Virus record (IMG/VR): IMGVR_UViG_2916199983_000001
Origin: a virus
Lineage: Duplodnaviria; Heunggongvirae; Uroviricota; Caudoviricetes
Strand: one strand, 5' to 3'
DNA: 64,000 nt
Position 1 is the first letter of the stretch, and each line of letters begins with the position of its first letter. The notes below the pieces were generated by a model. That model saw only the letters and a program-made list of their open reading frames with translations, did not search any database and was not told the DNA's origin. Positions 19,567-50,495 of the stretch are shown here, one piece after another. A program made the position numbers and the translations under genes.

Positions 19567-19953
19567 ATGGCTACCAACGAAACAGAGATCAAACAAGGTC
19601 GCTACGCAGCTTATATTGACTCGTTAATCACAATCTCGCCTAAAAGTCAGGCCACCATTGCCAAAGAGGTTGGGTACAAGAACGCCAACAATCTCTCCCT
19701 CATTAAAAGCGGCAAAATCCCGCTGCCGGTAGATAAAGTTCGAGCTTTAGCTAAAGCGCTAGATGCAGACCCGGTTCGACTGATGCTGATGGTTCTGGAA
19801 GAACGCCACCCTGAGTTGCTCGAATTTTTTCGCGAAGAGGGAACTGCGCCTCTCTCCGCTGATGAAAAACTTGTTCTAGAAGCGTTCCGTAACCGTTTTA
19901 ACGGTCAGCAGGGCGCATCAGAAAAGGTGGTCGAGGCCATCAAGTCACTGTGA
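19567..19953 (+). CDS. HTH (XRE-like) DNA-binding protein
   Basis: SQATIAKEVGYKNANNLSLIKSGK fits a helix-turn-helix. It follows an AT-rich region with a promoter-like TTG..TATAAT (about 19420..19445). Confidence 0.55.
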   Translation: MATNETEIKQGRYAAYIDSLITISPKSQATIAKEVGYKNANNLSLIKSGKIPLPVDKVRALAKALDADPVRLMLMVLEERHPELLEFFREEGTAPLSADEKLVLEAFRNRFNGQQGASEKVVEAIKSL

Positions 19954-21051
19954 GAAATTTACACGAATAAGCTCGGTGGCTAGACGATCTCCCTTGAATT
20001 TGTGGTCTATCTCGTCTAAGTCTGTTTGATTAACGATAGATGCGATGTACGCTGAGAAGTTGTTCAAGGCGTCTCGCATCTCATCCATATAATCGTGGCG
20101 ATCATAGACGCGATCTATCCCTTCAAGACTGTGGTTCATAATCTTACGAGCCACCTCCTGGTTAATCCCTAGAGCAGGGAAATAACTACGCGCTGTACGT
20201 CTCAGATCGCGTGGGGTGAATGACTCAACCTCCATCAACTCAGGTCGTTCCAGTATCCTTCTCAGTGCCTGGGCAATGGCCACCTTAGACATTGGCGTAT
20301 CCACGCCCTTCTTCTTATTCGAAGGAACGAGCCACTGGCTGCCTTTCCCGTACTCAAACAACTCTTCCACGCATTTGCGCATTAATGGGCTTAACGGCAG
20401 CGCGTGCTGTCTGGCCGATTTGTTACGCGTACCTTGATTCCATACATCACGTTGAAGGTTGAACTCATCCTTTCTGGCTCGGAGCACTTCATCGGGGCGT
20501 CTGGCAGCGACAAGACAGAGCCTGGCCGCCCACTTTGTGCCTTCGCACACATTGAAGTAATCCCAGACGTTCCAGAATACCCAGACCTCGGCGTCGGTCA
20601 GCTTACGTTCGCGCGGTACTGGCTTTGCGCCACCGGCAACTCTGTTGAGCGACATATCATTCAACGGTGATGTATCAATCAGCCCCTGAAAGGCGCACCA
20701 GCTCAGGAACTGTTTCATCAGGGAGAACACACGTCTGCCCTGGACGATCTTGCCTTCCAGTATCAGCGGGTTCACCAGCTGGTTAACCAAGACCCTACTT
20801 ATATCACTTACCTTTACTTCAGAGATATGCGGCATTACATGTATCAAAACACAATGAACAGCTATTTCAGGTCGACGCCTCGTTATCAGTAAAGATAAGC
20901 GAGTGAATAACATGAAGGCGGAAGAAAATGACATGTCTCCGTCGAATTTGGCGGTCGACATTGCCGACAAACCGGAAGCGCGTTCGAGGTACTCGATGGC
21001 TTCCCGAGAGGTGTTTTCTGCTGCGCGTGCTTTATCAAAGGTGTTTTTCAT
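19945..21051 (-). CDS. tyrosine recombinase (integrase / Cre/Xer-like)
   Basis: The C-terminal catalytic signature is present (RDLRRTARSYF ... HSLEGIDRVYDRHDY, i.e. R..H-x-x-R..Y). The exact start is uncertain. Confidence 0.7.
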   Translation of the reverse strand: MKNTFDKARAAENTSREAIEYLERASGLSAMSTAKFDGDMSFSSAFMLFTRLSLLITRRRPEIAVHCVLIHVMPHISEVKVSDISRVLVNQLVNPLILEGKIVQGRRVFSLMKQFLSWCAFQGLIDTSPLNDMSLNRVAGGAKPVPRERKLTDAEVWVFWNVWDYFNVCEGTKWAARLCLVAARRPDEVLRARKDEFNLQRDVWNQGTRNKSARQHALPLSPLMRKCVEELFEYGKGSQWLVPSNKKKGVDTPMSKVAIAQALRRILERPELMEVESFTPRDLRRTARSYFPALGINQEVARKIMNHSLEGIDRVYDRHDYMDEMRDALNNFSAYIASIVNQTDLDEIDHKFKGDRLATELIRVNFSQ

Positions 21052-21148
21052 CGTCCACTCACTGAGTGAAGCCCTTTTACTGTATGTATAAACAGTATAT
21101 TAGGCATAAGTTTCTGTATGATCAACCATAAAATAGCCTGTTTTGTAC

Positions 21149-21181
21149 AATGATTCCATACTTACTAGGTATGGAATCATT
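21149..21181. other. lox-like site: 13-bp perfect inverted repeats around a 7-bp spacer
   Basis: AATGATTCCATAC ttactag GTATGGAATCATT. It lies about 100 bp upstream of the tyrosine recombinase start. Confidence 0.5.
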
Positions 21182-21224
21182 AAAGGGCGGAAATTTAAAT
21201 TCTGAGGTTTTATTAGCGTGATTG

Positions 21225-21635
21225 TCACGGATTAGTGAGCGCTTGAAATGCAGCGGCGTATGCAGCGATATCGGCCATAATTTTTGGATCTTTCGCATAC
21301 TGATGTGCGTTGTTAGGGAAGATTGCCAATAGGCTATACACATCTTGGAAATGTGCATGTTGACTGTAAACGAGTGCGCGGTCGCTTGTGCAATTGAATC
21401 TGTTGCGGCTGCTGGTTCGTTCTTGCTTCGTGAACAAGAGATGAACGTGATAAACGCGGGAGGACACGATAGCACCCGGAGCCGTATACGGGCCATCTTT
21501 GCCGAATACGGCTGGGCACATGCCTTGTTTAAGCGACGTGAAATCGTCGAGTAACGTGATCTTTAAGTCAGGCTTTATATCGAAGGTCGGCTGTAAAAAT
21601 TGGGCGTAACTATCACTGTTCCATGTGACCTTCAT
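21225..21635 (-). CDS. YafO-family toxin-like protein
   Basis: It aligns with E. coli YafO (GMCPAVFGKDGPYTA vs GVLPDIFGRDALYDD; VYHVHLLF vs VAHIHLAN; LVYSQHAHFQDVYSLLAIFPNNAHQYAKDPKIMADIAAYAAAF vs LVYCQGAFDEQAWLLIAILKPEPHKLARDNNQMHKIGKMAEAF). Confidence 0.5.
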   Translation of the reverse strand: MKVTWNSDSYAQFLQPTFDIKPDLKITLLDDFTSLKQGMCPAVFGKDGPYTAPGAIVSSRVYHVHLLFTKQERTSSRNRFNCTSDRALVYSQHAHFQDVYSLLAIFPNNAHQYAKDPKIMADIAAYAAAFQALTNP

Positions 21636-21644
21636 CGTTCAACC

Positions 21645-22253
21645 TCAATGGAATGAGAAGTTGGCGAAGACGTCCTCATCAATGAGGCCAGTCTGCGATT
21701 CGATGACGTCTACGTCGTTAAAACACTGATTTAAAATCAATAGCAGATCAGAGATAGCCAAACGATACTCAGTTACAGAATCGCTCAGGCGCTTCAAGTA
21801 TGGATGAGGTTGCTCAGAGTCACGAATCAACTTGTTAACGAATCCCTCCAAACCACGAATGGTCAGGTCAACGTTCTTCAGTTCTTCGTAACGGCTTTCA
21901 CCGAAGCTGCTGCGAATCTTTTCCGCTTTCCATCCAGAGATGGCATTAGCCAGGCGAACGTGTTTCGCCGTCAATTCTGCGAGCTTGCTTTCGATCTCTG
22001 CCAGCTGTGCGGCATCGCCGTTCTCCTGAACAGGGATACCTGCGGTTCTCACATAGGTTTGTTCTTTGAATCCTGCGAATTTTGCAGAGTGCTTCACCGT
22101 GCCACGGAAGCGTCGATATCCAAGCGGCTCAATAAAGACACGCCCAGATTTAGCTTTAGGCTTTGCATTTGAAAAGCGCGAAGCGTTAGAGGTCACAGTA
22201 GCAAGGGCATTGCTAATGACACTCATATCTTCCAGGCAATTTTCTAAACGCAT
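21645..22253 (-). CDS. hypothetical protein (candidate partner or antitoxin of the YafO-like gene)
   Basis: 202-codon ORF ending 10 nt upstream of the YafO-like start. I recognise no family. Confidence 0.4.
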   Translation of the reverse strand: MRLENCLEDMSVISNALATVTSNASRFSNAKPKAKSGRVFIEPLGYRRFRGTVKHSAKFAGFKEQTYVRTAGIPVQENGDAAQLAEIESKLAELTAKHVRLANAISGWKAEKIRSSFGESRYEELKNVDLTIRGLEGFVNKLIRDSEQPHPYLKRLSDSVTEYRLAISDLLLILNQCFNDVDVIESQTGLIDEDVFANFSFH

Positions 22254-24195: not shown

Positions 24196-25401
24196 ATGAC
24201 GATACCAGCCAAAATAGATACCACTAATTTACTCACTATACTTGGAGTGATCGCTGCCGTATGGGCAATAATTACTCCTACCAGCAGACTGCGATTTCGT
24301 TTTTGTATGACTCGGTGGGACCTACTAATCATTGGGCTGATTTTTATACTAGCTAATTATTTGGTTTTTGCACCTGCATTAAGACAAGTTGGACTGTATT
24401 ACAGTTTCGGACCGTGGATATGGGGATTGGATAGTTCGAGTGCAGTATATCTATTGTTTCTCTTGGCTGCCTCATATCTTTTCATTCGGCTAAAATCGCC
24501 AACATTAAATCGAGGTAAAATAACACTATTTCTTGAGCTAATTGAGAGTTTACATCTTACCAAAAAATATGATGAGTTAGTATTGTTAGTTGAGCCTCAG
24601 TTAGACGAAATAATATCCCTTGCTAATGGAAAACCGAACCTTATTGTTCAATGGATTGATAAGCTATATGGCGGCTCCGATCGAAATGCGTTATTGAATG
24701 GAGAAGAACCCAAAGAACGAAATGTCTTGGTGAAAGGTCTATATTCCCTACTAAGTCCTTTGCGTAAAAAGCTATCATCAAATTATGAAGCCAGTGATAA
24801 AGCCCGAGAGGTTTTGCTGAATATACTAACTTCTCCTGATCTTACAAGGCATCTTTCACTTGCATATCCTCATTTTTGTTTGAGGCTTATTGGTGCTGAT
24901 GAGGTCGTTCGTTCTGATTTCATTGATAGATTTATTAATTCGCTGCTTGACTCACCTGGTAGTCGTCTTTATGTAGAACTTAAAAATAACCAAAATACAT
25001 GTACTGGAGGACGTCTTGCGATACCTGAAACCAACCGCTTGCTTCACTTTTTCTTTGCCGACTCAGTGTATGCAAGTAAAAGTGGCATATATAGAGCTAT
25101 AGGTGAATCTGTTTGCTGGCGTTTAGATGAAGACAGTAAGTTATCAGAAATACTAAACAAGCCCCTTGGCTCTTACCGTGAGCAAAGTAGATTTAGTTGT
25201 CCTATTAATTCTGGAATAACAATGTTCGAAATTATGGTGCATCAAGGTATTCATCAAAGATTGCAAGATCATCTTTGGCTGCATTATTTCAAACACTTTG
25301 CTGAAAAAATATTATATCAAATGAAAGTTCAGAGTATTGACTCAATCGCAGAACATCAAACACCATATCACTATCTTCTATGTCGCCTATTCGGTATTGC
25401 T
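24196..25401 (+). pseudogene. N-terminal 402 codons of an IS-disrupted, AT-rich gene for a 3-TM membrane-anchored protein
   Basis: Three N-terminal TM helices are followed by an unrecognised cytoplasmic domain. The apparent stop TGA at 25402..25404 is the first 3 nt of the IS terminus TGACCTGCC. Confidence 0.6.
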
Positions 25402-25534
25402 TGACCTGCCCCCACGATTAGATACAACACTCAGTTAGTAACGTCGGAATCTTCATTCTCAGAATGGTAATCCCCCCGAAAAGCCGGTGTGTTCATAAGT
25501 AGAATTTTCTCGTAATCTGAACCGGGAGATTTCT

Positions 25535-25801
25535 ATGAAAAAATCACGTTTTACCGACAGCCAGATCATGGCCATCCTCAAGCAAGCAGAAGCAGGAACG
25601 CCGGTGGCTGAATTGTGCCGCGAGCATGGCATGAGTAGCGCCAGTTTCTATAAGTGGCGCTCACGCTTTGGCGGGATGGATGCCTCCATGATGGCCCGTC
25701 TGAAAGAGCTGGAAGATGAAAACCGCCGCCTTAAAAAGATGTATGCCGAAGAACGACTAAAAGCCGAGATCATTCAGGAGGCTATGGCAAAAAAGTGGTG
25801 A
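25535..25801 (+). CDS. IS3-family transposase OrfA (HTH + leucine zipper)
   Basis: [32 protein letters not shown].... Confidence 0.85.
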
Positions 25802-26622
25802 AGCCATCGCATCGAAAGCAGATGGCACAGGACGCAGTCAGGAGTCGAAGCGTCAGCATACATTTTGCCTGCCAGTTGTTTGCTGTCAGCGAAAGTTGCT
25901 ATCGCTATCAGCCTCAGTTGAATGAAGAAAATGTCATTATTGCCGACTGGTTGCTCCGCATCACTGGCAATCAGCGCAACTGGGGATTTGGCCTGTGCTT
26001 TTTGTATCTGCGTAACGTAAAAGGCTTTAAGTTCAACCACAAAAGGGTGTACCGAATTTACTGCGAGTTATCGCTGAACATGCGAATAAAGCCGAAAAAA
26101 CGACTGAAACGGGATAAGCCCGAACCGCTGACGGTACCTAAAAACAGTAATGAATGCTGGTCGATGGACTTCATGCACGATCAATTATCAGATGGTCGCT
26201 CAGTCCGTCTGCTGAATATTATCGATGATTTTAACCGTGAGGCACTGGCAATAGAGGTCGATTTTTCTCTGCCGGCAAACCGAGTTGTGCGAACGCTGGA
26301 ACAGCTCATTGAATGGAAAGGTAAACCCATAGCAATACGATGTGATAATGGACCAGAATATACCAGTAACACGTTGATATCATGGGCTAATGACAGGGGC
26401 ATCCAGATTAACTTTATTCAGCCCGGCAATCCGCAGCAAAATGCCTATATTGAGCGTTACAACCGTACGGTACGCTATGATTGGCTGGGGCAACACCTGT
26501 TTACATCACTGGATGAATTGCAGAACTATGCCACGCAGTGGCAATGGTTTTATAATCATGAACGACCAAATATGGCGTTGAATGGTTTCACGCCGATGCA
26601 ACATATTCAACGCATGGCCTGA
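25795..26622 (+). CDS. IS3-family transposase OrfB (DDE), expressed by -1 frameshift
   Basis: DDE region ...WSMDFMHD...IRCDNGPEY...[12 protein letters not shown].... Confidence 0.85.
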
Positions 26623-27463
26623 TTCTACTTATCACCTCCGTCAAAAATGGGGGTATTACCGAATGACCCTTTCTCCAGCCCGCTGCAAATTCAGACGGTG
26701 TCTGATAATTCAGCGTGGAGTGCGGGCGGCATTCGTTATAATCCTGCCGCCAGTCATTAATAATTTTCCTGGCATGAACGATATCGCTGAACCAGTGCTC
26801 ATTCAAACATTCATCGCGAAATCGTCCGTTAAAGCTCTCAATAAATCCGTTCTGCGTTGGCTTGCCCGGCTGGATTAAGCGCAACTCAACACCATGCTCA
26901 AAGGCCCATTGATCCAGTGCACGGCAAGTGAACTCCGGCCCCTGGTCAGTTCTTATCGTCGCCGGATAGCCTCGAAACAGTGCAATGCTGTCCAGAATAC
27001 GCGTGACCTGAACGCCTGAAATCCCAAAGGCAACAGTGACCGTCAGGCATTCCTTTGTGAAATCATCGACGCAGGTAAGACACTTGATCCTGCGACCGGT
27101 GGAAAGTGCGTCCATGACGAAATCCATCGACCAGGTCAGATTGGGCGCCGCCGGACGGAGCAGCGGCAGACGTTCTGTTGCCAGCCCTTTACGACGTCTT
27201 CTGCGTTTTACGCCCAGGCCACTGAGGTGATAAAGCCGGTACACGCGCTTATGATTAACATGAAGCCCTTCACGGCGCAGCAACTGCCAAATACGACGGT
27301 AGCCAAAACGCCTGCGCTCCAGTGCCAGCTCAGTGATGCGCCCTGATAAATGCGCATCAGCAGCCGGACGGTGAGCCTCATAGCGGCAGGTCGACAGGGA
27401 TAAACCTGTAAGCCTGCAGGCACGACGTTGCGACAGACCGGTCGCATCACACATCAACATCAC
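26588..27463 (-). CDS. IS407-group transposase OrfB (DDE)
   Basis: ...WSMDFVMD...IRTDQGPEF...[23 protein letters not shown]...RPHSTL.... Confidence 0.85.
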
Positions 27464-27821
27464 GGCTTCCCGCTTCTGGTCTGTCGTCAGTACTTTCGCC
27501 CAAGAGCCACCTGAAGCGCCTCTTTATCCAGCATGGCTTCGGCAAGCAGCTTCTTGAGTCTGGTGTTCTCTTCCTCAAGCGACTTCAGGCGCTTAACTTC
27601 AGGCACCTCCATACCGCCATACTTCTTACGCCAGGTGTAAAACGTGGCATCGGAAATGGCATGCTTGCGGCAGAGTTCACGGGCGGGTACCCCAGCTTCG
27701 GCTTCGCGGAGAATACTGATGATCTGTTCGTCGGAAAAACGCTTCTTCATGGGGATGTCCTCATGTGGCTTATGAAGACATTACTAACATCGGGGTGTAC
27801 TAATCAACGGGGAGCAGGTCA
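26590..27821 (-). mobile_element. IS3-family (IS407-group) insertion sequence, copy B, inverted relative to copy A
   Basis: The outer terminus read in IS orientation is TGACCTGCTCCCCGTTGATTAGTACA, ending at 27821. Its orfB 3' end overlaps the 3' end of copy A orfB. Confidence 0.8.
27487..27750 (-). CDS. IS407-group transposase OrfA
   Basis: [30 protein letters not shown]...[15 protein letters not shown].... Confidence 0.85.
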
Positions 27822-28209
27822 TGCTATAGATTGGGCAGAACAAAGTTCATATATAAAAACAGTTAATAATTCTAAGGAGGATAGTAGGTATATCCCTAAG
27901 GAAGCGACGAAAGTATTAGGCTCTATGTTAGAGCATGTTATTCCTAGCCTGAAATTGAAGGGGTACTCAAAAGTATCCATATTACAGATGGTTGTCACCT
28001 GTTACACCAGGCTCGAAGAAAGGCAGATTAATGATATAGGTGAGGCATTATTGATACACACAACAACGGGGGAATTTAACTCTACAAGTTTAACATATCG
28101 TAGGAAGCTTCTATCGATATTCAAACGAATGGACCCTTACTTACAGGGAAATGCAAAAAAATTCAGAGAAAAGATAGAATTGGCTATTCAAATTAAACTT
28201 AACAGGTAA
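27822..28209 (+). pseudogene. C-terminal about 128 codons of the IS-disrupted AT-rich gene
   Basis: Once the IS pair and one TGCT copy are removed, the reading frame continues from the 24196 ORF (..FGIA|IDWAEQSSYIKTV...). The track ORF start at 27661 lies inside the IS, antisense to orfA. Confidence 0.5.
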
Positions 28210-28324
28210 TGGTTTAATTAAGCAGAGGAGCAAGGTCCTCGATTATGACATTGGTGTTATTAAATGAAATTGACTAACTTTGTCTTTTTTTTCAAGTAAT
28301 ATTGTTCTTTTTTGCTAATCTTAC

Positions 28325-28347
28325 AAAAGGGGCCGAAGCCCCTTTAA
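28325..28347. terminator. bidirectional rho-independent terminator
   Basis: AAAAGGGGCcgaaGCCCCTTTAAT. Confidence 0.5.
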
Positions 28348-28420
28348 TTATTTGCGCTGAAAAAAGTGTTGCTACGATGCTAAGAAGCAATGGTTAAGAA
28401 CGTCTGCCGTGTCTATCACA

Positions 28421-28496
28421 GCGCTGAACGGTCTGGCGACATTTTGCGGAGTCTTTCCGTTCGGACGGTGGTGGCGAACTCCAAACCGTTCAGCGC
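28421..28496. other. long hairpin: 12-bp perfect inverted repeat GCGCTGAACGGT/ACCGTTCAGCGC closing a structured 52-nt loop
   Basis: The inverted repeat is visible directly. Nested sub-stems (GGAGT..ACTCC, CCGT..ACGG) lie inside the loop. It sits just 3' of tRNA-Asn on the minus strand. Confidence 0.5.
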
Positions 28497-28501
28497 TATG
28501 T

Positions 28502-41852: not shown

Positions 41853-42923
41853 ATGACAACGTTGTCCAAAAACGTGATGCAACACAGGAAGGTATTGAAA
41901 GAAACCGGTTTGGCATTTGCCAAATCTATACCGCTTGTTGGGCCTCATATTGAGGCAGCGGAAAAAATGTTCACGTTGTTCTCAGAGATAAATGCTACGA
42001 CTTGTCGTGATCGATTCAACCGTTACATTATGGGCATTGGTGAAATTTGCGACGATGAGGTCGATATCTCAAGAGAACACTTTTCGGCGTTAGTCAAAAA
42101 GCTCGTGCTTGATGATGAAGACAAGAAAACAGAATACTACATCCGCTTGACGGTAAGCCTAGCCCGCAGCAGCCTTAACGACGATGAACGACTACTTTTT
42201 ATTCATATATTAAGTGAATTAACCTGCTCTGATATCGATTATGCCCGCAAGCTCTACATTGCAACGAATGCTTCCATCAAAGGTTTTAAAACATCAGCAT
42301 CAGCTCAAGCCAGCATCACATCACAAAAAAAAGCACTGTCTCTGCGCTCACTCAATAAGCTCATTTCTTCAGGACTTGTTTACGAGGATAGAACAGGTGA
42401 GATCAAGGCCAATCCGGGCTACAAACTAACAAGCGATTTAGAGCGTCTTTTGGGATTCATTTTCCATAGTGACGATCTACAACCTACGGCATTGTCCATT
42501 GAATCGAAAGAAGAATATGACGTCATTATTATTGACAGCGACAAGATTTACCGAGGCTCATATCCAAACATTATCTATCGTCAGCTTCGGGCTGCTGGAG
42601 TTAAAGTTTGCATAGAGAAAAGTGAAGACTGTATTGCCTACAAGCTAGCAACGCTCTTCATTTCCGTCAAAACAGGTAGCGGGTTGAACGGTCTTGGCGA
42701 GTGGATAAATTATGGCGATATTAGCGTCCTCACACATTTAGATAACAGCACTAATCGCTTTTATGAAAGTGCATTCAGGGAGACAGTCGACCGCGAGCAT
42801 TTTTCACCTGGAGACGACGATTCGTCATTCGATGCAAGTAAGCTAAATAACGCACTAAATAAGGTAGCTGCGTTTGTTTTAGACCGACTATCTCCATCTA
42901 TAGGAACTAAATTAAAGCCTTAA
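41853..42923 (+). CDS. hypothetical protein (plus-strand moron)
   Basis: 356-codon ORF opposite to all its neighbours. Its 3' end overlaps the primase 3' end by 17 nt in convergent orientation. Confidence 0.5.
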   Translation: MTTLSKNVMQHRKVLKETGLAFAKSIPLVGPHIEAAEKMFTLFSEINATTCRDRFNRYIMGIGEICDDEVDISREHFSALVKKLVLDDEDKKTEYYIRLTVSLARSSLNDDERLLFIHILSELTCSDIDYARKLYIATNASIKGFKTSASAQASITSQKKALSLRSLNKLISSGLVYEDRTGEIKANPGYKLTSDLERLLGFIFHSDDLQPTALSIESKEEYDVIIIDSDKIYRGSYPNIIYRQLRAAGVKVCIEKSEDCIAYKLATLFISVKTGSGLNGLGEWINYGDISVLTHLDNSTNRFYESAFRETVDREHFSPGDDDSSFDASKLNNALNKVAAFVLDRLSPSIGTKLKP

Positions 42924-44182: not shown

Positions 44183-45523
44183 TTAGAGGACGTCCATAAT
44201 GCGTTCGATGAATCGCATTTGTTCGAGGTTCTGCTTAACGCGGATGCTTACGCCGCCTTTCTGGTTACGTGAACCAGCGAAGTACAGACGCGCTTCGCCT
44301 TTCGCTTCTTCCTCTTCCGTTTTGTTGATCGTGATAACGAGGTCAGCGATACGCACCTTCTCGATGTTGTCCGCTGCGTGCATCATTGTGGCCACCTCTG
44401 AAGCACCACCTTCCCTGTTAGTCTGCGATGCAGTGATGCCGGCAACGTTGTGTTTGTCGTACAGCGCACGCAGGTCAGTGTAGATGCTGCGAATGTTGGC
44501 GCGGTCGTCGCGGAGGTCGTAGCTGGCACGCATCAGGTCGGCGTAGTCGACCACGACCATGTCGGGGATCATGCCATTGGCTTTCATGCTGCCCAACATA
44601 CGATCCAGATCTGCAGGCGACATGCTTCCGGACGGTCGTTCAACAATCCACAAGCTCCCCACGCCTTTCGTCGCGCCCAGCTCTGCCAGTTTGCGATGGA
44701 CGTCGTCGCGGCGCTCCACCAGCTTGGACATTTCGGTCTCAGACAGACGGGCGTCAAAGCGATCTGACAGAATGGAGGTGTGAACTTCCAGCGACAGATA
44801 CAGGACGTTGTAACCGGCAAGCGTGGCGTTGATGGAGAACTCACCCATCGCTGTCGATTTACCAGACTTCGCGAAGCCCATGAACAGCACCATTTCACGC
44901 TTTGCCCAGCCTTTCTGGTAAAGCAGCTTGTCGAGCAGCGGTAGACCCGTCGTGATGCTGTTTGGCACGTAATCGTCGGATGCTTCATACTCACGCGCCT
45001 TGTAACGCTCTGCTGATTCAGAGAAGTAATCGTAAATGCCGGTCGCTTCGTTAGAGCCGATTTGCTGGACTTTGGCCATGATTGCCATTGCGCCCTGGAA
45101 ATCGCCCTTCTCTTTCATCTCAGCCGCTTTAATCAGCGCGTCGTCGAACGCTACGCTTTTGGCAAACGTCGCGACCTGGTCGACCATGTACGCCGTATCT
45201 GACAGCTTCTCCGCGAGAATCCGCTTAAACGCCTCAACGACGTCGGGGAACAGCTCTTCGCGGATCGTCTTATCGCGTTTGGCGCGTTTGAGCATGTCGA
45301 GGATGGCCGACGATGATGGTGCGCTCTTATACATTCTGTAGTAGCCCGACACCATGTTCACCAGAATGGCGTTGGCCGCATTGGAGAACTGGTTTGGCGC
45401 AACCAGATCACCGGCGCGAGTGAGAAATTCATGGTCGCGACAGAAGTAGGCTGCGAGTCGATTCTGGAAATCGTCGTCGAACTCTTCAGACAACCCTCGT
45501 CCTGTGTGGCAAAGTTCGGTCAT
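44183..45523 (-). CDS. DnaB-like replicative helicase
   Basis: Walker A GFAKSGKST. The RecA-like C-terminal domain has DnaB motifs (VVDYADLM, SQTNREG). Confidence 0.85.
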   Translation of the reverse strand: MTELCHTGRGLSEEFDDDFQNRLAAYFCRDHEFLTRAGDLVAPNQFSNAANAILVNMVSGYYRMYKSAPSSSAILDMLKRAKRDKTIREELFPDVVEAFKRILAEKLSDTAYMVDQVATFAKSVAFDDALIKAAEMKEKGDFQGAMAIMAKVQQIGSNEATGIYDYFSESAERYKAREYEASDDYVPNSITTGLPLLDKLLYQKGWAKREMVLFMGFAKSGKSTAMGEFSINATLAGYNVLYLSLEVHTSILSDRFDARLSETEMSKLVERRDDVHRKLAELGATKGVGSLWIVERPSGSMSPADLDRMLGSMKANGMIPDMVVVDYADLMRASYDLRDDRANIRSIYTDLRALYDKHNVAGITASQTNREGGASEVATMMHAADNIEKVRIADLVITINKTEEEEAKGEARLYFAGSRNQKGGVSIRVKQNLEQMRFIERIMDVL

Positions 45524-45542
45524 GTGCTTTCCTTTGGTGCTT

Positions 45543-45557
45543 AAACAATTTGTTTTC
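45543..45557 (-). promoter_or_regulatory. AAACAA-T-TTGTTT palindromic leader motif (helicase gene copy)
   Basis: On the coding strand it reads GAAAACAAATTGTTTAAGCACCAAAGGAAAGCACATG. Confidence 0.45.
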
Positions 45558-45583
45558 TAATACTAAAAAAGCCAAATAGGGGA

Positions 45584-46309
45584 TCAACAGAATCGCCGTG
45601 CTTCTTCCAGTTCTTCCGGGAAGTGCGCGTAAATCACACGCTCAGGCACGATTTCCATCAACCAGACAGCGGAGAAGATGATGCGGACGCGTTTGTCTCG
45701 GGTAATGCCACGCAGACGCTCCAGAACCCACTCAAAATAGCGTTCTTGAATCGGGTCGTCCTGCATGTCTCCCAGATGCTTAAAACTCACCAGAGAGTCA
45801 TCCAGACGGGTTACAGCGCGTTTGGCTAACTTCTCTTCGAAAATCTCGATCAGCTCGGGCTGCCAGAGATGCTGGGGGCGAGGTAATTTGTCCCACAGAC
45901 GGCGTGCAGCTGCGGAAAGAACGGTAGAAATAAAGTAGTCATAAGAGCAGCAGTACTGGTCGGCAAACTGGCGTGCTTTCCAGAGAGACGTTTTGTTGGC
46001 CGTCGACAGCTCCTGATACGGCACACGTTTCAAACCGGTAGTGAATTGGGCCGTCTCATAGTGCTCGCGGCCATGCGACAGCATGATGTATGAGTACTGG
46101 CGCTTGTATGCCTCAGTGAAGAGGCATGTGGCCATAAGCGGGTGCATGTCGCGGTAATCGAACCACTTTGTCTCGAACAGCTCTGCCTCATCCTTACAGC
46201 GTGACAGCCCAATATTCTCGGCCACCCACTTGTCCATGACTGTGGTGTCCCACTCGGTCATGAAGTCGTACTGGTCGTTGTTAATAGTGTTAAAGAAGAT
46301 CTGGCTCAT
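45584..46309 (-). CDS. hypothetical protein
   Basis: 241-codon ORF. The promoter motif lies at 46321..46342. Confidence 0.45.
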   Translation of the reverse strand: MSQIFFNTINNDQYDFMTEWDTTVMDKWVAENIGLSRCKDEAELFETKWFDYRDMHPLMATCLFTEAYKRQYSYIMLSHGREHYETAQFTTGLKRVPYQELSTANKTSLWKARQFADQYCCSYDYFISTVLSAAARRLWDKLPRPQHLWQPELIEIFEEKLAKRAVTRLDDSLVSFKHLGDMQDDPIQERYFEWVLERLRGITRDKRVRIIFSAVWLMEIVPERVIYAHFPEELEEARRFC

Positions 46310-46500
46310 GTGCTTTGCTCGATAGGTAGTTACTTACTTATCATAATGAGCGAATCATAGCGACTGGAGACTGTTTTTGGAAGTGGAAACGGAAGGGAAT
46401 GTGTCTGGGAAGTTGGCATAGAAAAAGACCTGCTCCCGTATAAATAATAATAAGTAACTTAGTATTTATATACGAAAACAGGTTCACAGAAGTATAATTT

Positions 46501-48204
46501 TTAAATTGTTTTAATAATATACCTTACCCTAAATTCATTTAAAGAAGACAATTTAGAAATCCTTACAAGTGCATCTTTGGCCTTTCTGGTTATCTGCTCT
46601 TGCTCACTGGTGGGATTAGTTAAGTTGTCAAATTTTAACAGACCATTTTTGACTAGATTCATCACATCTCGTTCACATGTTGTCATCCAATTGAAATAGT
46701 CATCCTCACTAAAATTATTCAAAGCATCAACATCTCTTGGGTTATAAGAATTGCCTGCACTTAGCTTAATTAGTATATCTTCTAAAGAAATCCCTTCATA
46801 TTTAAGTGCAACGATTCGATTTTTAATGACACTTGACAATTTTTCAAAATTTATATGTGCATCTATTAAATCTGAATACGCTAAATTTATATCACATCTT
46901 TCGAAAAATGCATCAGTATATTTCGTAATGTAGTCGTCACAATCTTCCCCTAGAGATTCCAACATTTCCATTAAACTGGATACCCTACCCAATGGAAGAT
47001 CACAAAGATTTTCTTCAAATAGCTTTTTAATTTCAGAAATAAAAACAAAATCATTCTTTGCAAAGGACCCAGTATAAATAGCCCAAACATCATTAACTTT
47101 ATTATTCAATGTGATATTAGTATAATCTTTATTCTTCTTTTGGATTACTTCACCAAGATTACTTGCAGCGATTTTATAACCATGTTTTAGATGAAAGTCA
47201 ATATCATCATCAAACACACCATCGCATCTATTAAAAACATCTTCGACATTACCTACAAATAGATGCACAGGTGTTTTGTTATCTACTTCATCGTCTGGAA
47301 TGTAGTATGCATTTGTATTAATGAGAGTTTTGAACTCTTCGTAATCGACGTCATGAACCCCAGAATAGTAGACAAATGAAAATAAAGCTACTCTATTGAC
47401 AAAGTCAGCTCTAACCTGTTCATGTGCTTCGCAAAGGTCTTTTTCATATTCTGCAAGCATATTTTTAATTTTAATTAATATCCGAATGTTTTTAATATCC
47501 AAATGCAATACAATTTCTTTTAAATATTTATAGTTTTTATCATTTTTAAAAAAAACTTTATCCAGGTTATCAATGGCCATTGGGGAAAACATAATATCTA
47601 GATCTACAATTTTCTCTCTGTACTCTGAGAATTGTTTTTCCTCTTTTGTCCCCTTGAGATTGTTTTCATTATAAACCAGTATTATTTTACAGTTTTTCTT
47701 TCGGGCTAACTCATCAATCAACCCCATGATATCCTTTATCTCTAAAGAGTTACCTTTTCTTTCTAAATCGTCAAAACAAATTACATAATCCTTTACAAAC
47801 GAATATTCAACAGCCGAAACAAAATTTCCCGCTCTAAAACCTATAGACGTATTGTCGAAATATTTTATAATGAACTTAGATAATCTATTATATTTTAAAC
47901 AATAACAAATTTTGGAAAGGAATTTCCCATTCACTATTTTATCTTGTTCGACAAGTGTCTGCCTATACTTTTTTTCATTTATTGGAGTCGCCAAATGAAA
48001 TATTTCTTTCTTAATTTCATTTATTGAGTTTTTTCCAAAAAGAGAAATATATGAGTAAGCACTTTTATTTAGCGAATTAACATTTTTGTGATAGTACCCA
48101 TTCCAAAAATGTGTTTTCCCTATCCCCCAATCACCTTTTATTACAGCAACCTTATTGTCTGAATTGAAAAAAGTGTTTAAGACTTCATCCAAATTTATCA
48201 TCAT
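46501..48204 (-). CDS. KAP-family P-loop NTPase
   Basis: Walker A VIKGDWGIGKTHFW and Walker B VICFDDLER. The gene is about 30% GC, far below its neighbours. Confidence 0.65.
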   Translation of the reverse strand: MMINLDEVLNTFFNSDNKVAVIKGDWGIGKTHFWNGYYHKNVNSLNKSAYSYISLFGKNSINEIKKEIFHLATPINEKKYRQTLVEQDKIVNGKFLSKICYCLKYNRLSKFIIKYFDNTSIGFRAGNFVSAVEYSFVKDYVICFDDLERKGNSLEIKDIMGLIDELARKKNCKIILVYNENNLKGTKEEKQFSEYREKIVDLDIMFSPMAIDNLDKVFFKNDKNYKYLKEIVLHLDIKNIRILIKIKNMLAEYEKDLCEAHEQVRADFVNRVALFSFVYYSGVHDVDYEEFKTLINTNAYYIPDDEVDNKTPVHLFVGNVEDVFNRCDGVFDDDIDFHLKHGYKIAASNLGEVIQKKNKDYTNITLNNKVNDVWAIYTGSFAKNDFVFISEIKKLFEENLCDLPLGRVSSLMEMLESLGEDCDDYITKYTDAFFERCDINLAYSDLIDAHINFEKLSSVIKNRIVALKYEGISLEDILIKLSAGNSYNPRDVDALNNFSEDDYFNWMTTCERDVMNLVKNGLLKFDNLTNPTSEQEQITRKAKDALVRISKLSSLNEFRVRYIIKTI

Positions 48205-48226
48205 TTATGCTCTATTTGACAAATGT

Positions 48227-48250
48227 AAAAGGCGCCTCTCAGCGCCTTTT
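48227..48250. terminator. rho-independent terminator after the par operon
   Basis: AAAAGGCGCctctcaGCGCCTTTT. Confidence 0.6.
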
Positions 48251-48252
48251 AC

Positions 48253-48612
48253 TTAACCTTTCTTCATCAGCTCACGCTTGATTTCATCGGTGCGCATCGT
48301 GACGTCGGCAGCGGTGATCGCCTCGTTCAGTTTCACGATGTCTTCGATTTCCTGCGGCGACTTCTCTGCCAGATGGAAAATGGCTGCGCGAATCACGTCA
48401 GAACGGGTGAACTTCTCGAAACGAGGGATGAACTTCATCATCTCCAGCAGATCGAAGTACTCGTCTTCCAGCGACATTGTGCGGCTCTTAATCTTCTCTT
48501 TCCCACGAGTCGGACGCCCCTGCGGTCTGACTGGCTGGCGCATTGGGGTGCTGCTTTTTACCGGTTCTTCCGGATCTTTGCGCTTTGCAAGGTCTCCCAT
48601 TCTCATGGACAT
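48253..48612 (-). CDS. partition protein, ParG/ParB-like small DNA-binding partner
   Basis: Coupled to parA (shared nt 48612). It has a basic N-terminal tail and a C-terminal RHH-like segment. Confidence 0.5.
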   Translation of the reverse strand: MSMRMGDLAKRKDPEEPVKSSTPMRQPVRPQGRPTRGKEKIKSRTMSLEDEYFDLLEMMKFIPRFEKFTRSDVIRAAIFHLAEKSPQEIEDIVKLNEAITAADVTMRTDEIKRELMKKG

Positions 48613-49277
48613 TATTCTTCCTCCAGACTCATGATGTAATCTACAAACTCTTCAAACTCGGCTTCTGCCTTCTTATCGCGTTCGGCGCCAGTCATTTCAA
48701 AGATAGAACGACCTGCCTCTTCCGCATCGTCATAAACGTTACGGTTGTACAGGTTAACCGGCGCAGCCTCGATGCCGAATGTCTCGACAATTTCTTTCGC
48801 CGCCAGAATACGTGACGCCTGGGAAGGCAGTGACGGACACTGGTTCACTACCGCGCGGATCTTCACAGTCTCGTTCACGTTGCGAACGTTGTCGATAATC
48901 GGGTCGATATCACGCAGGGATTTCAAATCACGACGCTTAGGGCGAAGCGGGATAATGATGAAGTCTGCCAGCAGCATCGCTTGTCGCTGAATTTCGGAGT
49001 CAAAACCACCCGCATCAATGACGACGTAATCGTAGCGTCCCTTCAGCGATTTGATGTGTTTGACGATGTCGTCCTGAACGTATGCGAACGGGATTAGCTC
49101 AAGATCTTCGTTCTGGCGACGGTCTTCGCACCAGCTCGTTGTGGTGCGCTGAATATCAATGTCGGTGACGTGAGTCTTCTTTTTCTTTTTAACTTTGAGG
49201 CATACCGCAATTTGCTGGGCAACGGTAGATTTGCCTGGGCCGCCTTTTGTGCCGCCAACCACAATGATCCTGGTCAT
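48612..49277 (-). CDS. parA: ParA/Soj-family partition ATPase (type Ib)
   Basis: Deviant Walker A GGTKGGPGKST. 221 aa. Confidence 0.85.
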   Translation of the reverse strand: MTRIIVVGGTKGGPGKSTVAQQIAVCLKVKKKKKTHVTDIDIQRTTTSWCEDRRQNEDLELIPFAYVQDDIVKHIKSLKGRYDYVVIDAGGFDSEIQRQAMLLADFIIIPLRPKRRDLKSLRDIDPIIDNVRNVNETVKIRAVVNQCPSLPSQASRILAAKEIVETFGIEAAPVNLYNRNVYDDAEEAGRSIFEMTGAERDKKAEAEFEEFVDYIMSLEEE

Positions 49278-49312
49278 TGGTGAGTTCCCTTTGCGTGAAT
49301 TATTGTCGTATG

Positions 49313-49327
49313 AAACAACTTGTTTTC
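49313..49327 (-). promoter_or_regulatory. AAACAA-c-TTGTTT leader motif (parA copy)
   Basis: AGAAAACAAGTTGTTTC lies 36 nt upstream of the parA ATG. Confidence 0.4.
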
Positions 49328-49329
49328 TT

Positions 49330-49690
49330 ATATGCGATATAGCCTAAATGCCTACGGCTACGGTGTAAAGGTGAAATGATAGGCAATGCAGGGTGTTAGC
49401 TCACAGAGCAAACTAACAGTTGAATGTTTGGCCAATCAGCCTTATAGTGAATGTACGGAAAGACGCCGTACATATGACGGGTTTGACCGATAATATTATT
49501 GATGCTTGAAATGACTATATAAATACTGATCTTACTGAATAAATACCGTTTAAATTACTGTTACTAATCGCTTATATACTGACATTAAATTATTGAGTTG
49601 ATACTGAAATAGCTTATATATCTGACACTTATATCATTTAATTATATCTAGACAAAGAAGTGCCTCACAGCTTGGGAAGTGAGGCCAGGA
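49330..49690. promoter_or_regulatory. AT-rich parA upstream region with repeated TACTGA / TATCTGACA motifs (candidate centromere/operator)
   Basis: aaatactgatcttactgaataaatac, attactgttactaatcg, cttatatactgacatt, gatactgaaatag and cttatatatctgacactt all lie here. Confidence 0.4.
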
Positions 49691-49697
49691 GTAAAGC

Positions 49698-49967
49698 ATG
49701 TCAGCACTGAAAAAACAGCGCATCGATCTAAGATTAACTGACGACGACAAGAGCATGATCGAAGAAGCTGCGGCAATGACCAACCAGACTATTACTCAGT
49801 TTATGGTTGCCAGCGCCTCTGAACGTGCTGCGGAAGTGATAGAGCAACATCGCCGCTTGATTCTCAGTGAAGAGTCCTGGAATCTGGTAATGGATGCCAT
49901 CAGTAACCCGCCTGCACCGAACGATAGGCTGAAACGAGCTGCCAAACGTCTACAAAGCATGGAGTAA
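49698..49967 (+). CDS. DUF1778/RHH antitoxin (TacA-like)
   Basis: 89 aa. It is immediately upstream of, and coupled to, the GNAT toxin gene. Confidence 0.6.
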   Translation: MSALKKQRIDLRLTDDDKSMIEEAAAMTNQTITQFMVASASERAAEVIEQHRRLILSEESWNLVMDAISNPPAPNDRLKRAAKRLQSME

Positions 49968-49970
49968 GAC

Positions 49971-50495
49971 GTGGCCGACCTGACCATAGAGATGTTTTCA
50001 GCACAAGCCGTATACGATTTTTCTGGCTTCGACTGCGGCGAACCATCTCTGAATGATTTCCTGCAAAACCGCCTAGTACAGCAACACAACGGGCGTATAT
50101 TACGCGGCTACCTGCTTCTTACCAAAGATCCGGTGCCGAAAGTTAAGGGTTTTTACACGCTATCCGGGAGCTGTTTTGCAAGACAGACGCTACCATCGAA
50201 CACCCAGAAGCGGAAAATCCCCTACGCAGATGCACCCAGCGTTACGCTTGGCCGCCTGGCAATAGATATCAGCCTACAGAAACAAGGCTACGGTGAGGTT
50301 CTCGTAACGCACGCGTTGAAGGTTGTTTATCAGGCTTCTCGCGCAGTAGGCATATACGCTTTGTTTGTGGATGCACTAAACCAAAGCGCAATGCAGTTCT
50401 ATCAGAAGTTTGGATTCATCCCTTTGACGGGGGCGAATGCGAACTCGCTTTTCTACCCCACGAAAAGCATTGAAGAGCTGTTTGAAACAGAGTAA
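49971..50495 (+). CDS. GNAT acetyltransferase toxin (TacT/AtaT-like)
   Basis: GNAT fold motifs (RLAIDISLQKQGYGEVLV, FYQKFGF). GTG start. Confidence 0.7.
   Translation: MADLTIEMFSAQAVYDFSGFDCGEPSLNDFLQNRLVQQHNGRILRGYLLLTKDPVPKVKGFYTLSGSCFARQTLPSNTQKRKIPYADAPSVTLGRLAIDISLQKQGYGEVLVTHALKVVYQASRAVGIYALFVDALNQSAMQFYQKFGFIPLTGANANSLFYPTKSIEELFETE

Follow-up and report, generated by a model that had tools for sequence, protein, structure and literature searches.

Some KAP-family P-loop NTPases are already known as defence proteins, and the closest described ones set the frame for the gene reported here, an open reading frame (ORF) at positions 46501-48204 on the minus strand of a 64,000-nucleotide stretch (hereafter the window) of the Caudoviricetes record IMGVR_UViG_2916199983_000001. 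KAP NTPases fused to C-terminal regions without known function confer up to about 6 logs of phage protection (PMC13552941), and for one of these proteins, EF_KAP, defence needs both the Walker B motif and the C-terminal region, with equal protection at multiplicities of infection of 1 and 10, hence not abortive (PMC13552941). Reve, a single-gene KAP-family system of a P4 satellite hotspot, strongly protects E. coli against several phage families and is described as unannotated by PADLOC or DefenseFinder (Nucleic Acids Research 2026, PMC13586616). PifA of plasmid F is a plasmid-borne KAP-family NTPase that excludes phage T7, and QatA, the KAP NTPase of the QatABCD defence system, binds DNA and forms heptamers or octamers. 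Set beside these systems, the window gene is a stand-alone cargo gene that most likely protects the plasmid-bearing cell, and hence the plasmid, against other phages or competing mobile elements. The link to defence, which the initial annotation had drawn from the recurrence of KAP NTPases in bacterial defence islands, is strengthened because the protein partially matches the PADLOC candidate family PDC-S49, the candidate PDC-S31 occurs as alternative cargo at the same site, and a 54%-identical homologue stands in the P2 gpA-gpQ hotspot.

The gene and the parts of its product, in amino acids (aa) and with model confidence given as the predicted local distance difference test (pLDDT), are as follows.

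46501..48204, minus strand: KAP-family P-loop NTPase gene, 567 aa, predicted soluble, single-gene cassette (ORF, RefSeq coding sequence, PF07693, phrog_4740, partial PDC-S49 match)
47521..48204, minus strand: N-terminal NTPase domain, aa 1-228 (Pfam match at aa 14-226; AlphaFold beta-alpha P-loop core, pLDDT mostly >85)
48112..48135, minus strand: Walker A GDWGIGKT, aa 24-31 (G24, W26, G27, G29, K30 and T31 invariant in 45 homologues)
47758..47784, minus strand: Walker B VICFDDLER, aa 141-149 (C143, D145, D146, E148 and R149 invariant in 45 homologues)
47800..47964, minus strand: variable insert between the Walker motifs, aa 81-135 (pLDDT <50 at aa 94-125; low allele identity)
46504..47520, minus strand: C-terminal domain, aa 229-567, all-helical and alpha-solenoid-like, presumably for sensing or for binding a partner (AlphaFold model)

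The KAP motif definition combines a Walker A of the form GxxGxGK[ST] with a Walker B of the hhhhDDL[DE]R type, as reportedly set out in the original family description by Aravind et al. in 2004, and transmembrane helices inserted in the NTPase domain are common in the family, although not universal. Most of what the initial annotation had read from the letters was borne out here. The 567-aa ORF is given alike by the ORF list and by RefSeq, which holds a coding sequence with an ATG start at identical coordinates (WP_131405960.1, 'P-loop NTPase fold protein'); the proposed motifs GDWGIGKT and ICFDDLER are present and invariant in the 45 homologues; the KAP assignment was recovered by the Pfam profile KAP_NTPase (PF07693; E=8.4e-8, 32.3 bits against a gathering cut-off of 20, aa 14-226), which is also precomputed for most of the listed homologues; and the GC content of about 30%, roughly 20 points under the neighbours, was measured as 0.300 (0.264 at third codon positions), where the four genes around it have 0.51-0.55 and the window as a whole has 0.502; the gene forms the longest and deepest low-GC tract of the window.

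In the AlphaFold model (pLDDT 85.5) the P-loop core is alpha/beta, the insert is disordered or ill-defined at aa 94-125, and the rest of the protein is all-helical. No membrane segment was found in the protein, the highest 19-residue Kyte-Doolittle mean being 0.93, and the insert at aa 81-135 contains no hydrophobic segment; this absence of transmembrane helices marks a soluble KAP subfamily and is compatible with family membership. Foldseek against the PDB returned weak matches to AAA+/STAND proteins, such as ORC/Cdc6, CED-4, Apaf-1, Avs4 and TnsC (E about 5e-4 to 5e-3, template modelling (TM) score 0.2-0.28), and a family-profile sequence search of the PDB gave chance-level matches only; a nuclease, protease or other effector fold was recognisable in neither. 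The residues N239, R241, G342, L495 and R559 of the C-terminal domain are invariant and, in our reading, form no recognisable catalytic motif. A phmmer search with this domain against 1.84 billion representatives retrieved 420 clusters, and among the 150 listed nearly all of the full-length proteins have 510-610 aa, with the domain at about 220-570; this near-uniform length and domain placement shows that the two-domain architecture is fixed. The protein also matches phrog_4740, a PHROG without assigned function, over its full length (E=6e-99), and an NCBIfam search gave no match.

When compared with defence families, PDC-S49 was the sole PADLOC family matched (E=3.3e-22), at profile positions 26-208 of 624 in the best-scoring model, which correspond to the NTPase part, and the other two PDC-S49 models matched the window allele more weakly, up to position 299. 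All four of the slot alleles compared below match PDC-S49, the sister alleles reaching profile positions 319-405. PDC-S49 is likewise a single gene with a profile length of 619-629 positions (567 aa here), but the match of the window allele covers about 30% of the best-scoring profile. The EF_KAP-type proteins resemble the window protein in being encoded by a single gene on mobile DNA and in joining a KAP NTPase to a region of about 320 aa without known domain, whereas EF_KAP differs, as compared by description, in having an N-terminal membrane helix, another helix inside the NTPase domain and Walker B residues D246/D247, the window protein being predicted soluble with D145/D146. An E. faecalis plasmid KAP protein retrieved by tblastn was considered as the published EF_KAP and rejected, as it is a different protein, which shares only the NTPase domain with the window protein. 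Reve resembles the window gene, at the level of domain names, in that one gene encodes both ATPase and KAP P-loop domains and lies in an enterobacterial mobile-element hotspot, but it resides in a P4 satellite and the window gene in a phage-plasmid.

PifA, although plasmid-borne and phage-excluding, is a 741-aa protein whose gene is accompanied by that of the repressor pifC, whereas the window gene has no pifC-like neighbour; PifA and the window family align over about 210 NTPase residues only (20% identity, hhalign probability 44%), and membership was rejected, as the window protein has no PADLOC PifA match (F PifA itself scores 963 bits). QatA belongs to a four-gene operon with QatB, QatC and QatD, whereas the window gene stands alone; membership in QatABCD was rejected too, with no QatA profile match and with par and rep genes as neighbours. 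The STAND/AVAST proteins (Avs, bNACHT) also combine an NTPase core with a variable helical-repeat domain and a conserved core with a variable C-terminus, but no effector domain is seen here, the structural similarity is low (TM 0.2-0.28) and the signature is KAP, not NACHT/NB-ARC. By these comparisons the window protein belongs to a different, soluble KAP subfamily that shares the architecture of the validated single-gene KAP defence proteins, and it is a candidate addition to this emerging class.

The genomic setting of the gene was then defined by the following features.

44183..46309, minus strand: downstream backbone, 241-aa protein (45584-46309) and DnaB-like helicase (44183-45523), then primase (ORF list, RefSeq)
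46420..46483, minus strand: long imperfect hairpin (46428-46483), then CUUUUUCU; intrinsic-terminator-like (fold energy, inverted repeats)
46486..48253, no strand assigned: exchangeable segment (cargo slot), in which homology to relatives with other cargos is lost (blastn breakpoints)
48225..48252, minus strand: GC-rich terminator-like hairpin after the stop codon of the small gene following parA (12-bp stem, GAGA loop)
48253..49277, minus strand: upstream backbone, parA (48612-49277) and small 117-119-aa gene (48253-48612) (ORF list, RefSeq)

Over 3.9 kb (45500-49400) the window shows 100% identity, with no shift in coordinates, to plasmid pRHBSTW-00570_3 of Citrobacter sp. RHBSTW-00570 (NZ_CP056401.1), a non-mobilizable IncFIB plasmid of 119.7 kb, and the par and rep flanks are 94-96% identical to those of Salmonella phage SSU5, which identifies the element as an SSU5-like phage-plasmid. 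On the minus strand the order is parA, the small gene, a hairpin, the KAP gene, a second hairpin, the 241-aa gene, the DnaB-like helicase gene and the primase gene. In the blastn alignments homology breaks off at 46483-46494 and, at the opposite border, at 48228 or 48254, so the exchanged segment barely exceeds the KAP gene, which is the sole ORF inside it. A megablast search with 45500-49400 retrieved 740 plasmid records, and the KAP part was covered in only four of them, namely two Citrobacter plasmids, which are identical, and two from Salmonella, at about 85%. Among these about 740 related plasmids at least five alternative cargo types were observed between the same flanks. The commonest is a DUF2971 protein, which is the PADLOC candidate PDC-S31 (E down to 3e-41); it is also carried, in the opposite orientation, by the closest backbones, Enterobacter hormaechei plasmids with flanks 98.3-99.0% identical. 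Further cargos are a 225-aa gene, a 350-352-aa gene, a 136+259-aa pair, and DUF2971 with two more genes (SSU5). All the alternative cargos have 36-44% GC on backbones of 47-52% GC. Two cargo types, KAP and DUF2971, match PADLOC candidates (PDC-S49 and PDC-S31), and for the remaining three types PADLOC and Pfam searches gave no match.

The gene is thus neither universal at this position nor backbone-like in composition, since about 100 of the about 740 plasmids carry a KAP homologue and the others hold unrelated cargos, and the par-rep gap is, judging from these alignments, a true accessory-gene hotspot of SSU5-like phage-plasmids. Apart from the two hairpins, the slot borders showed neither direct repeats nor any other mark of a recombination site, and for this reason cargo exchange by homologous recombination in the flanks is taken as the default assumption. 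The par-rep gap as a hotspot where two PADLOC candidate families alternate was not found in the literature searched; a large survey of SSU5-group elements from clinical isolates, which relied on DefenseFinder, listed some clades as free of defence systems and mentioned neither KAP nor DUF2971.

A tblastn search detected full-length KAP homologues on about 100 plasmids of 100-130 kb from enterobacteria (75 from Klebsiella, 21 from Escherichia and 2 each from Citrobacter and Salmonella). About 100 of the related plasmids carry an allele 42-44% identical to that of the window, and the KAP-bearing plasmids inspected have the gene in the same slot and the same orientation. An even sample of 60 of the 740 records contained about 10 with KAP, and among 5,426 complete E. 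coli genomes the backbone gene was present in 246 and the KAP gene in 28, all 28 copies being on plasmids. A 44%-identical allele forms one cluster (E. coli and Shigella sonnei) that occurs on 928 contigs of about 110 kb, and the reading frame is intact in hundreds of records.

Differential evolution was observed for the slot and its flanks. The four slot alleles compared share 39-71% protein identity, all at about 30% GC, and ParA, the small protein, the 241-aa protein and the helicase of the same plasmids are 80-99% identical. Between the window plasmid and a Salmonella plasmid the synonymous divergence (dS) of the flanks is 0.05-0.16, whereas the proportion of synonymous differences (pS) in the KAP gene is 0.76 (saturated) and that of nonsynonymous differences (pN) 0.16. 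Saturated synonymous sites beside flanks of low dS mean that the alleles are far older than the backbones and were swapped in by recombination, with no divergence in place; the direction and date of the swap are not readable from these data. The low pN relative to pS indicates purifying selection on the KAP gene. Identity between alleles is 43-85% in the NTPase core (aa 1-80 and 136-228) and 7-73%, usually 20-45%, in the insert (aa 81-135) and the C-terminal 340 aa, and the nonsynonymous divergence of the KAP alleles is 10- to 40-fold above that of the par/rep genes in the same plasmid pairs.

These patterns bear on the idea that the gene is a maintenance accessory, adding to the partition, replication or stability functions of the phage-plasmid, which would fit its orientation, shared with its neighbours, and its place directly between parA with the small gene and the helicase/primase genes. 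Such a role is very improbable, because the gene is absent from about 86% of the related plasmids, where unrelated genes occur in either orientation, its composition is foreign, its homologues occur in contexts without par or rep genes, and its alleles exceed the par/rep genes in nonsynonymous divergence to the extent just given.

The two hairpins enclose the gene closely and bear on its expression. The par terminator hairpin placed at 48227..48250 by the initial annotation is real, that range being the core of a structure whose full extent is 48225..48252 (about -19.7 kcal/mol, z=-4.4), while the spacing of 17 bp given from hairpin to start codon did not hold: the KAP ATG (48204) lies 20 nt past the stem end (22 nt past 48227), and 17 nt is the distance from the KAP stop codon to the second hairpin, which has a U-tract (46420..46483; -20.1 kcal/mol, z=-3.5). 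The second hairpin is conserved backbone, as homology with SSU5 and other relatives extends to 46485-46494. Each slot variant has its own GC-rich hairpin right after the small-gene stop, with differing stem sequences, so that its structure is kept and its sequence replaced between variants. The 48 nt between the small-gene stop and the KAP ATG are occupied by the hairpin, only AGAG precedes the ATG, in agreement with the weak Shine-Dalgarno (SD) sequence already described, and a search for a promoter of the KAP gene itself found only sites whose transcription would begin within the ORF. Since there is no promoter room between hairpin and start codon and the SD is weak, low-level expression would probably come by read-through from the autoregulated par operon, and silencing of AT-rich DNA is a further possibility.

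With no promoter found, a weak SD and an extremely low GC content, the gene might be a silent or decaying passenger without current function, for example one silenced through its AT-richness. This is hardly credible in view of the intact frame in hundreds of records, a pN far below pS, the invariant catalytic residues and the same two-domain architecture in the full-length members of the 420 clusters.

Relatives of the gene were also observed well outside SSU5-like elements. In Rahnella, the gene of the 54%-identical protein belongs to a P2-like prophage, where gpA, with a TacA/GNAT pair after it, lies on one side and the portal gene on the other; this gpA-gpQ locus, the site of old and tin in P2, has been shown to be a defence hotspot (PMC9122126). 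A Pseudomonas homologue adjoins a cI-like S24 repressor in a prophage, and a 52%-identical homologue lies between RelB/ParE and a NACHT gene. In integrative and conjugative elements (ICEs) of Klebsiella, Salmonella and E. coli, KAP homologues of about 35% identity occur as lone AT-rich genes inside conjugative transfer operons at two positions, after a TraC-like gene and between DtrJ-like and RAQPRD genes, which may be cargo slots within ICE backbone operons. The homologue is a solitary gene in every context inspected. Its GC content is 30-32% within ICEs of 56-60% GC and 39% in Pseudomonas, and in 45 of 45 loci (species representatives from many phyla) it is below that of the surrounding 20 kb, with a median difference of -11 points. 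Low GC was therefore rejected as evidence of recent acquisition, AT-richness being a family-wide trait: composition marks mobile cargo and dates no arrival. Of the earlier proposal of a recently acquired accessory gene in a hotspot, the accessory and hotspot parts are borne out and the use of low GC as an acquisition date is not.

The distribution of these relatives is also relevant to two further explanations. The gene could serve the element as a phage, either in counter-defence or as an accessory NTPase of the lytic cycle, neutralising host immunity or remodelling host complexes after induction; the full-length match to phrog_4740 and the occurrence in prophages agree with this, and phage hotspots hold defence and anti-defence genes alike. 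We regard it as distinctly unlikely, since 567 aa and an NTPase/variable-helical architecture are typical of sensors, not of small inhibitors, only one of 50,697 phage records contains a full-length relative and is itself an SSU5-like phage-plasmid, and KAP genes also occur in ICEs, elements without a lytic cycle. Moreover, the gene follows the par operon in the same orientation, and as that operon should be active in the plasmid state, such a place would favour expression while the plasmid is carried.

The other explanation is a variant of the favoured idea, by which the chief targets of the protein would be other plasmids, phage-plasmids or satellites, in preference to lytic phages, and it would bring about incompatibility or exclusion by sensing incoming replication or partition proteins. 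The position between partition and replication genes, the relatives within ICE conjugation operons and the exclusive carriage on mobile elements in Enterobacteriaceae, with the E. coli copies confined to plasmids as noted above, speak for it. It remains unlikely, if less so than a phage-serving role, because homologues are also present at classical locations of anti-phage genes, namely the P2 gpA-gpQ hotspot and the immunity region of a prophage, the validated KAP proteins target phages, and nothing ties the protein specifically to plasmid functions.

Under the favoured reading of a protective stand-alone cargo gene, the helical domain and the variable insert would recognise a phage-made molecule, recognition would switch on ATP binding and hydrolysis of the core, probably with oligomerisation, and the activated core would block phage replication or assembly, either directly or through ATP consumption. 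Several points weigh against this reading. For the window protein and its close relatives the defence role is a prediction; the PADLOC match covers only about 30% of the best PDC-S49 profile, and no paper in the published literature searched mentions PDC-S49. The validated KAP defence proteins belong to different subfamilies, PifA aligning over the NTPase only and EF_KAP having membrane helices and its Walker B at 246-247. In addition, since the searches brought up no effector domain, how the protein would kill or block is a guess; the promoter search found no usable promoter, so expression is a prediction, and the hotspot position is an association, not a function.

A more specific and tentative version, which we hold to be possible but rather doubtful, sees in the par-rep gap an undescribed immunity-cassette site between two terminator hairpins, where DUF2971 and other cargos take turns with a soluble KAP protein that lacks an effector and has a hypervariable helical sensor. 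Defence would come from the NTPase of the KAP protein alone, by sequestration or remodelling of a phage complex or by ATP drain, at a dose set by par-terminator read-through. If this were true, DefenseFinder-based surveys would miss KAP entirely, and clades reported as defence-free could carry a system; the 928-contig allele cluster together with the survey's silence on KAP and DUF2971 would point to a possible blind spot of current annotation. Clinical Klebsiella, E. coli, Shigella sonnei and Salmonella Typhi commonly carry SSU5-like phage-plasmids, and if the slot is a defence slot, these elements would shape host phage susceptibility in a way overlooked by current annotation and relevant to phage therapy and to plasmid persistence. 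The family would also offer a compact soluble model of how an effector-less KAP NTPase stops a phage, and the natural allele series on near-identical backbones is ready material for specificity mapping.

As for the flanking genes, ParA/CbiA Pfam matches were found on the parA homologue of one relative, and the 241-aa protein and the DnaB-like helicase show 80-98% identity among relatives. The small gene after parA (48253-48612) gave no match in a Pfam search and is presumed to encode the centromere-binding or partition partner of ParA; the same gene is labelled 'RelE/ParE putative toxin' in phage Cyrano (4802-5161) and 'hypothetical' elsewhere. The start codons in the ORF list and in RefSeq differ for the small gene (48612 and 48606) and for the primase gene (44118 and 44091).

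On the other side of parA, at 49698-50495, a DUF1778 (TacA-like) antitoxin gene is paired with a GNAT acetyltransferase (TacT/KacT-like) toxin gene, and the equivalent region holds two unrelated hypothetical genes in SSU5 and in the E. coli and Klebsiella relatives and a 183-aa gene in the Salmonella relative. This region appears to be a further cargo slot beside the par operon; a PADLOC search with the genes of the variable region beyond parA, in the window and in relatives, gave no match.

Other AT-rich or accessory stretches were also observed in the window. At 41853-42923 on the plus strand, a 356-aa ORF begins in a low-GC tract (0.38-0.43) and its 3' end overlaps that of the primase gene by 17 nt; it had no match in Pfam and PADLOC searches, nor had two neighbouring ORFs at 40.3-41.7 kb in a PADLOC search. 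An AT-rich 402-aa ORF with hydrophobic N-terminal segments (24196-25404, plus strand), missing from the plasmid's gene table, adjoins two IS3-family transposase genes, the IS3-family elements lying at 25535-27750, and the low-GC stretch 27701-28500 contains only a 182-aa ORF; a PADLOC search with the 402-aa and 182-aa ORFs gave no match. Finally, in the region 19945-22253 a gene for a site-specific integrase lies close to one for a YafO-family toxin, the latter with a 202-aa hypothetical gene upstream of it, and a transcriptional regulator gene is adjacent.

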